From positions 8,439 through 72,438 of the forward strand of contig JBEEIS010000135.1 in the NCBI GenBank assembly GCA_041169755.1: a stretch of 64,000 nt of DNA, read 5' to 3'. The translations under genes were made by a program, and so were the position numbers. This DNA is from Pseudomonadota bacterium (GTDB lineage Bacteria; Pseudomonadota; Gammaproteobacteria; Burkholderiales; Burkholderiaceae_C). How positions within the stretch are numbered: position 1 is the first letter of the stretch; each line of letters opens with the position of its first letter. The notes beneath the pieces are model-generated. The model had not been told where the DNA came from. It saw only the letters and a program-made list of their open reading frames with translations, and did not search any database. Positions 25,916 to 25,970 of this stretch are shown here, piece by piece.

Positions 25916-25941
25916 AGTAACGCCCCCAGCCGGGCGGTTCC
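25916..25941 (-). promoter_or_regulatory. ECF promoter for the leftward operon
   Basis: On - strand GGAACC (25941-25936)-N15-TTACT (25920-25916), with GCG before TTACT. Confidence 0.75.
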
Positions 25942-25944
25942 CCG

Positions 25945-25970
25945 GGAACCCGCACAGTACGTGCGTTACT
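25945..25970 (+). promoter_or_regulatory. ECF promoter for the rightward sctW operon
   Basis: GGAACC (25945-25950)-N15-TTACT (25966-25970), with GCG before TTACT, 30 nt upstream of the sctW ATG. Confidence 0.75.

Follow-up and report, generated by a model that had tools for sequence, protein, structure and literature searches.

The locus analyzed here raises the question of how two divergent sets of T3SS genes are transcribed from one short intergenic region, and which sigma factor directs their transcription. The window, that is, the entire 64,000-nucleotide stretch of DNA that was analyzed, holds between positions 25859 and 26000 an intergenic region of 142 bp, from which a leftward array of T3SS genes and a rightward gatekeeper operon diverge. 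We consider it highly probable that back-to-back promoters in this region are recognized by RNA polymerase bound to a BtrS/BrpL-like ECF sigma that the locus itself encodes, at 9757-10362.

Two copies of the same element, one on each strand, occupy the intergenic region. On the forward strand, GGAACC (25945-25950) is followed by CGCACAGTACGT-GCG-TTACT, which ends at 25970; on the reverse strand, GGAACC (25941..25936) is followed by GCCCGGCTGGGG-GCG-TTACT, which ends at 25916. The original prediction of GGAACC-N12-GCGTTACT on both strands was therefore literally correct as read from the sequence. The GCG before TTACT is likewise literal at both sites, but across relatives it is merely a C/G-rich preference. 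Written as GGAACC-N14-GTTACT, the element occurs once per strand (reverse, 25941..25916; forward, 25945..25970). The rightward promoter of the gatekeeper operon combines a −35 box at 25945-25950 with a −10 box GTTACT at 25965-25970, whereas the leftward promoter of the tip/translocon/basal-body operon combines a −35 box at 25936-25941 with a −10 box GTTACT at 25916-25921, each −10 box lying 14 nt past its GGAACC. Transcription is predicted to start at about 25977-25981 rightward and about 25905-25909 leftward. The two −35 boxes are 3 bp apart, in the arrangement GGTTCC-CCG-GGAACC at 25936-25950 that had been described, and the whole segment, GGTTCCCCGGGAACC, forms a perfect palindrome of 15 bp, GGTTCCC-C-GGGAACC, with 7-bp arms and its center base at 25943.

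The exact form GGAACC-N12-GCGTTACT is found only at the twin sites across the 3.18-Mb, 67% GC assembly that contains the window, against approximately 0.02 matches expected per genome by arithmetic from base composition. When two mismatches were tolerated, six matches were found in the window versus 5.9 expected, and the specificity of the pattern was gone. Because this relaxed search performed no better than chance, exact and block-wise patterns were used. The intergenic region is identical, with zero changes, in contigs spanning it from four other freshwater metagenomes, which indicates that it is not an assembly artefact. Runs X1-X12 show the organism in many lakes. No sigma-70-like promoter (TTGACA-N16-18-TATAAT-like hexamers) was found in 25700-26200, and no strong Shine-Dalgarno sequence at the start of the gatekeeper-side operon. 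A second palindrome, CGCAC-N5-GTGCG, lies in the rightward spacer (25951-25965, forward strand), as had been noted, and it had been proposed to bind an extra regulator. However, any 5-bp palindrome occurs in only 3 of 61 homologous spacers, each time with a different sequence, and random 15-mers with the same GC content carry such a palindrome in about 1% of cases. The spacer palindrome was accordingly rejected as a regulator site, is not conserved, and is most likely a product of chance.

Pfam matches on both flanks agree with the claim that one box faces a leftward T3SS array of roughly 20 genes and the other the gatekeeper and SctV genes. The first leftward gene encodes a 96-aa protein (25568-25858, reverse strand, ATG at 25858) taken from the ORF list, with no Pfam or NCBIfam match. 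The array that it opens comprises some 19-20 T3SS genes (10376-25858, reverse strand), among which Pfam identified a TPR chaperone, an SseC-like translocator, SctI/J/K/L/N/O/Q/R/T/U, a CesT-like chaperone and, as the last gene, the secretin SctC. These genes are co-oriented from 25858 to 10376 and are regarded as a putative single operon. The rightward genes (26001-30421, forward strand, Pfam) begin with an SctW/YopN/BopN-type gatekeeper (26001-26861, forward strand; NCBIfam TIGR02568, E 2.6e-13, below cut-off), continue with a SycN-like protein, YscX and a TPR protein at the YscY position, which shows Pfam TPR matches only and no YscY family match, and reach SctV. Beyond SctV lie genes for SctD, a needle protein, a STAS protein and an RsbW-like kinase. 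The gene for the STAS anti-sigma antagonist (30479-30934, reverse strand) is antisense between sctV and sctD, and that for the RsbW-like kinase (32747-33259, forward strand) follows the needle gene. A tRNA-Leu gene (8892-8976) borders the sigma end of the locus. Additional boxes were observed within the leftward operon: a weak one, GGAACT-N14-ATTACC, at 22534-22559 (reverse strand) within the window's second translocator gene, and a second good one about 700 bp inside the operon in several relatives (L125, ~676; L132, ~661; L133, ~619). These boxes may be internal promoters.

The presumed reader of the twin boxes is encoded beside sctC at 9757-10362 (forward strand). Its protein carries Sigma70_r2 and r4_2 domains and matches TIGR02937 with 92.5 bits, above the cut-off. 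Directly upstream, at 9155-9709 (forward strand), lies the gene for a 184-aa anti-sigma candidate of the BspR/BtrA T3SS family, which matched NCBIfam NF052467 with an E-value of 1e-36 and 126.7 bits, under the cut-off of 160. The region-4 helix of the sigma, GTVRSRVSRAR, is approximately the same as that of E. coli sigma-E and P. aeruginosa AlgU, and GGAAC is the element read by both of these factors. The sigma had been described as an ECF sigma of the HrpL type. Its domains and the TIGR02937 match confirm the ECF assignment, but the reference to HrpL is only loosely right, since the protein is better described as BtrS-like. Its identity to HrpL from Pseudomonas, Erwinia and Ewingella loci (L018, L019 and L021) is 29-30%, it is no closer to HrpL than to sigma-E and AlgU, and on the basis of this identity we rejected it as an HrpL orthologue (ECF32). 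Given that the sigma is 46-59% identical to the sigmas of Achromobacter-family bsc loci, as against about 30% to HrpL, and that a BspR/BtrA-family anti-sigma candidate is encoded upstream of it, we classify it as BtrS-like.

A third box was observed near this gene pair. It reads GGAACC-N15-CCACCAA, a literal hrp box, at 9021-9048 on the forward strand (CCACCAA at 9042-9048), 106 nt before the anti-sigma/sigma pair, and a same-genus relative has GGAACC-N14-GCCACT at the matching place. Its position suggests possible positive autoregulation of the anti-sigma/sigma pair. Such autoregulation would differ from the situation in Bordetella, where btrS is driven by BvgA.

Conservation in homologous loci, which had been put forward as a check on the promoters, was examined at two scales. 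An SctV-based scan of genome contigs yielded, among the matches listed, mostly distant T3SS and flagellar loci; the useful ones were L014, L001 and L002, and the window's gatekeeper (26001) could be aligned with the gatekeepers of L014 and L001. The closest locus among the matches listed belongs to a same-genus MAG (L014, identical with G009 and G066), with identities to the window of 76-77% for SctV, 42% for the gatekeeper and 75% for the sigma. This MAG carries GGAACC-N14-GTTACT on both strands at the orthologous place, with its −35 boxes 36 bp apart. Signs of a T3SS were observed in only 2 of the 41 genomes examined from the window's genus (37 by the gatekeeper search and the other four by the sigma search). 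As judged from these counts and identities, the distribution of the T3SS in the genus is apparently patchy, and its secreted parts appear to evolve fast, with gatekeepers far more diverged than SctV.

At the larger scale, a gatekeeper profile search in the family that holds Achromobacter sp. ASV32 was positive in 41 of 401 genomes. Among the loci first examined, GGAAC(C/T)-N14/15-GTTACTAC precedes the gatekeeper gene in all 32, and a divergent GGAAC(C/T)-N14/15-GTTAC(T/G) faces the tip/translocon operon in 29. Eleven further loci agree with the two-block motif, one pair forming a clade with GACACT on the gatekeeper side. The motif was thereby found at the orthologous place in a total of 43 related loci, with the gatekeeper-side box in all of them and the divergent box in about 40. 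GGAAC is invariant at this place in 59 of 59 foreign sites, and the −10 letters G-T-(T)-A-C are constant or nearly so over the same sites, whereas the spacers are variable; the conserved core of the relatives is thus GGAAC(C/T)-N14/15-GTTAC(T/G). An orthologue of the sigma, at 46-59% identity, was found in 40 of 40 gatekeeper-positive genomes, compared with 2 of 18 gatekeeper-negative ones; as in the window, sigma and gatekeeper usually share a contig and are separated by 17-20 kb. A search for RNA runs containing the window's stretch found none, and contigs from RNA runs of two relatives cross the intergenic region or break inside genes and give no 5' ends. The proposal that two divergent ECF-type promoters give the consensus of the local sigma is well supported by this motif, by its co-occurrence with the sigma orthologue, and by the sigma-E/AlgU-like helix of region 4.

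These features accord with an assignment of the pair to the BtrS type: the boxes occupy the divergent tip/translocon versus gatekeeper position of a YscX/YscY-type locus, a presumed cognate ECF sigma is encoded in that locus, and the motif is conserved and found together with that sigma. The genes of the window follow the order given for the Bordetella bsc locus in Table 2 of PMC7498569. In Bordetella, BtrS activates bsp22 and bopN, and the bscN-bsp22 and bopN-orf2 genes need BtrS (PMC7498569, from Mattoo 2004 and Ahuja 2016). On this assignment, the twin boxes spell out at the sequence level the divergent, BtrS-dependent promoters of bsp22 and bopN that are known from Bordetella genetics. The resemblance extends to the gene order on both flanks, to an ECF sigma beside sctC with a BspR/BtrA-type protein upstream (a match under cut-off), to genes for a STAS and kinase partner switch, and to two operons diverging from one short intergenic region; the Achromobacter-family loci share the same two boxes. 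There are also differences. The host of the window is an uncultured freshwater bacterium whose genus shows signs of the system in only 2 of the 41 genomes examined, its sigma shares only 46-59% of residues with the Achromobacter-family sigmas, its gatekeeper is split from its TyeA-like part, no PP2C phosphatase gene was seen in the window among the ORFs scanned, and its −35 boxes are 3 bp apart, as opposed to 13-44 bp or more.

The mechanism that we propose would proceed as follows. Region 4 of the sigma would bind GGAAC(C) and region 2 would bind GTTAC(T), 14 nt onward, and transcription would begin about 7-10 nt further downstream. The leftward transcript would enter the tip/translocon/basal-body genes, and the rightward one those from the gatekeeper to SctV. 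Restraint of the sigma probably comes from the BspR/BtrA-like protein encoded just upstream. In Bordetella, the BspR/BtrA protein is exported by the T3SS itself. During active secretion, both halves of the apparatus would consequently be expected to rise together. The 3-bp gap between the −35 boxes would represent a lineage-specific compaction of the intergenic region that is tolerated rather than required.

The hrp box recognized by HrpL in Pseudomonas syringae, Erwinia and Dickeya, GGAAC-N16-17-CCACNNA (PMC4149516), is a further point of comparison. The twin sites share its −35 core and its distance, reading GGAAC-N16-TTAC on both strands, and would resemble it in driving T3SS structural genes and probably effector genes. 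Unlike the hrp box, however, their −10 elements are TTACTAC and TTACTTA instead of CCACNNA, the sequence CCACCAA being confined to the third box, and the sigma of the window is only about 30% identical to HrpL. In addition, HrpL is not paired with a secreted anti-sigma, and its own gene is transcribed from a sigma-54 promoter (PMC8999054). Judged by its letters, the twin element is hrp-box-like, with TTAC replacing CCAC.

The alternative that survives best accepts the two promoters but holds that their tight 3-bp geometry is itself functional, so that the holoenzymes exclude or touch each other and the operons fire alternately or in a coordinated ratio. RNA polymerase usually contacts DNA from −40 to +20. 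The predicted starts are separated by about 68-75 bp. At this spacing, the contact zone of either polymerase would include the −35 box of the other promoter, the two zones would by arithmetic overlap by a dozen bp, and each −35 box would lie near −41 of the other promoter, where class II activators bind. Transcription-driven supercoiling can, in addition, couple promoters that lie back to back, as described for dmp Po/Pr (PMC5175336). Those promoters resemble the present pair in being divergent and non-overlapping within one intergenic region, but they use two different sigmas and lie further apart, and the coupling described is that of dmp. The gap of the window is, moreover, the smallest among the 43 loci. 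Nevertheless, the gap is not conserved. In relatives it measures 11, 13 (in twelve genomes), 14, 21, 32-36, 42-44, 53, 71 and 93-208 bp, shows no helical phasing, and differs by 33 bp in the nearest relative. This variation argues that selection acts on each promoter and not on the distance between them. The original suggestion that steric overlap coordinates or alternates the operons by design is not borne out by gaps that range from 3 to 208 bp among relatives, with 36 bp in the same genus, and we regard a functional role of the geometry as unlikely. More specifically, it is decidedly unlikely that polymerases at the 3-bp gap exclude each other, or touch via region 4, such that single cells would fire the translocon/basal-body and gatekeeper/export-gate operons alternately or cooperatively. 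If this were true, the spaced-out relatives would be without such built-in ratio control.

The same promoter form was sought elsewhere in the genome with a weight matrix built from foreign sites only and a threshold of 16 bits. Four matches of at least 16 bits were obtained: the twin sites, at 23.2 and 20.6 bits, and two sites outside the window, C132:155 (reverse strand, 23.2 bits) and C96:17499 (forward strand, 18.0 bits). Reversed or shuffled genomes yielded 0-5 matches of at least 16 bits, with a maximum of 20.9 bits. Scores are therefore insufficient by themselves to establish the two extra sites, and their context must carry the argument. The site on contig C96 (17499-18480, forward strand; L136, 1000-1981) reads GGAACA-N14-GTTACT, and its 18.0 bits fall within the null range. 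Downstream of it, after 53 nt, comes a Ser/Pro/Ala-rich 107-aa ORF, which is followed by a gene for a CesT-family chaperone; the homologous chaperone gene in the same-genus relative is cut by the contig end. This arrangement is a candidate effector-chaperone operon of the T3SS sigma, far from the T3SS island.

The site on contig C132 (1-155, reverse strand; L135, 1-155) reads GGAACT-N14-GTTACC and scores above all null matches. It precedes a structured RNA of about 105 nt that ends in an intrinsic terminator. The Rfam matches of this RNA, to betaproteobacterial small RNAs, are weak and sub-threshold, including one to a toxic sRNA family at 30.6 bits, below the gathering threshold. The core of this RNA is conserved genus-wide. 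At this RNA, 19 of the 27 genomes that are without the T3SS sigma or gatekeeper have a GGAACTC −35 box, and 13 of those 19 have the full sigma-E-like form GGAACTCTAC-N12-ATCTAT, a pattern of our own. The form GGAACT-N14-GTTACC was observed at this place solely in both T3SS-bearing genomes and one close relative, 62% complete, in which no T3SS was found. This distribution may reflect a rewiring of the sRNA promoter into the T3SS regulon.

A second alternative is that the twin boxes are read by a general envelope-stress sigma, the RpoE/AlgU-type paralogue on contig C34 (about 32-35% identical), instead of the T3SS-linked sigma. Such a paralogue is present in every genome of the genus, a GGAAC −35 core is common to sigma-E-type promoters, and region 4 of the T3SS sigma is nearly identical to that of sigma-E/AlgU. 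RpoE/AlgU (ECF02) promoters thus share with the twin sites the −35 element and a near-identical region-4 recognition helix, but differ in −10 element, spacer and regulon. In particular, the GTTAC −10 element at N14 is unlike the ATCTAT form that the same genus carries at the sRNA described above, the GTTAC form co-occurs with the T3SS and its sigma, and the Bordetella counterparts of these operons need BtrS (PMC7498569). Reading by the envelope-stress sigma is consequently very unlikely.

It is still less probable, to the point of being slight, that the resemblance is due to chance or that just one box of the pair functions as a promoter. The leftward site, at 20.6 bits, lies inside the range of the best shuffled-genome matches, and since the null maximum was 20.9 bits, its score alone is unconvincing. 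Against this stand the two exact 14-base matches only 3 bp apart, where about 0.02 would be expected in a genome, the conservation of both boxes at orthologous positions in approximately 40 genomes, and the failure of a scan of 25700-26200 to detect any other promoter for the leftward operon. Finally, it is exceedingly improbable that a dimeric DNA-binding regulator uses the 15-bp palindrome, perfect as its 7-bp arms are, as its operator and that the GTTACT boxes are there by coincidence, because the GGAAC boxes of relatives drift 11-208 bp apart while each retains its own GTTAC at 14-15 nt, as expected of two promoters and not of two half-sites. A palindromic operator with a fixed half-site distance was likewise rejected, the distance from GGAAC to GGAAC ranging from 3 to 208 bp when the window is included.

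The preferred reading, paired promoters for the BtrS-like sigma of the locus, does not overturn current understanding; the layout is shared by about 40 related bacteria, which makes it well supported but unexceptional. The very tight spacing in the window is a natural extreme and could offer a simple test bed for the packing limit of two ECF promoters. No printed form of the BtrS consensus was found in the literature searched, Mattoo 2004, Ahuja 2016 and Moon 2017 lying outside that search. Additionally, the ECF re-classification predicted no motif for the T3SS-linked sigma group, owing to its method, which looks upstream of sigma genes. Approximately 80 sites in 43 genomes now provide a consensus for the BtrS family of T3SS sigmas, (AT)GGAAC(C/T)-N14/15-GTTAC(T/G). 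It offers a means of annotating the T3SS regulons of Achromobacter, Bordetella and environmental relatives, with effector genes far from the apparatus among them. Furthermore, with a BspR match that falls under the cut-off, a sigma/secreted-anti-sigma circuit of the Bordetella type seems to be present in this freshwater bacterium, which would extend the circuit to a free-living freshwater lineage.
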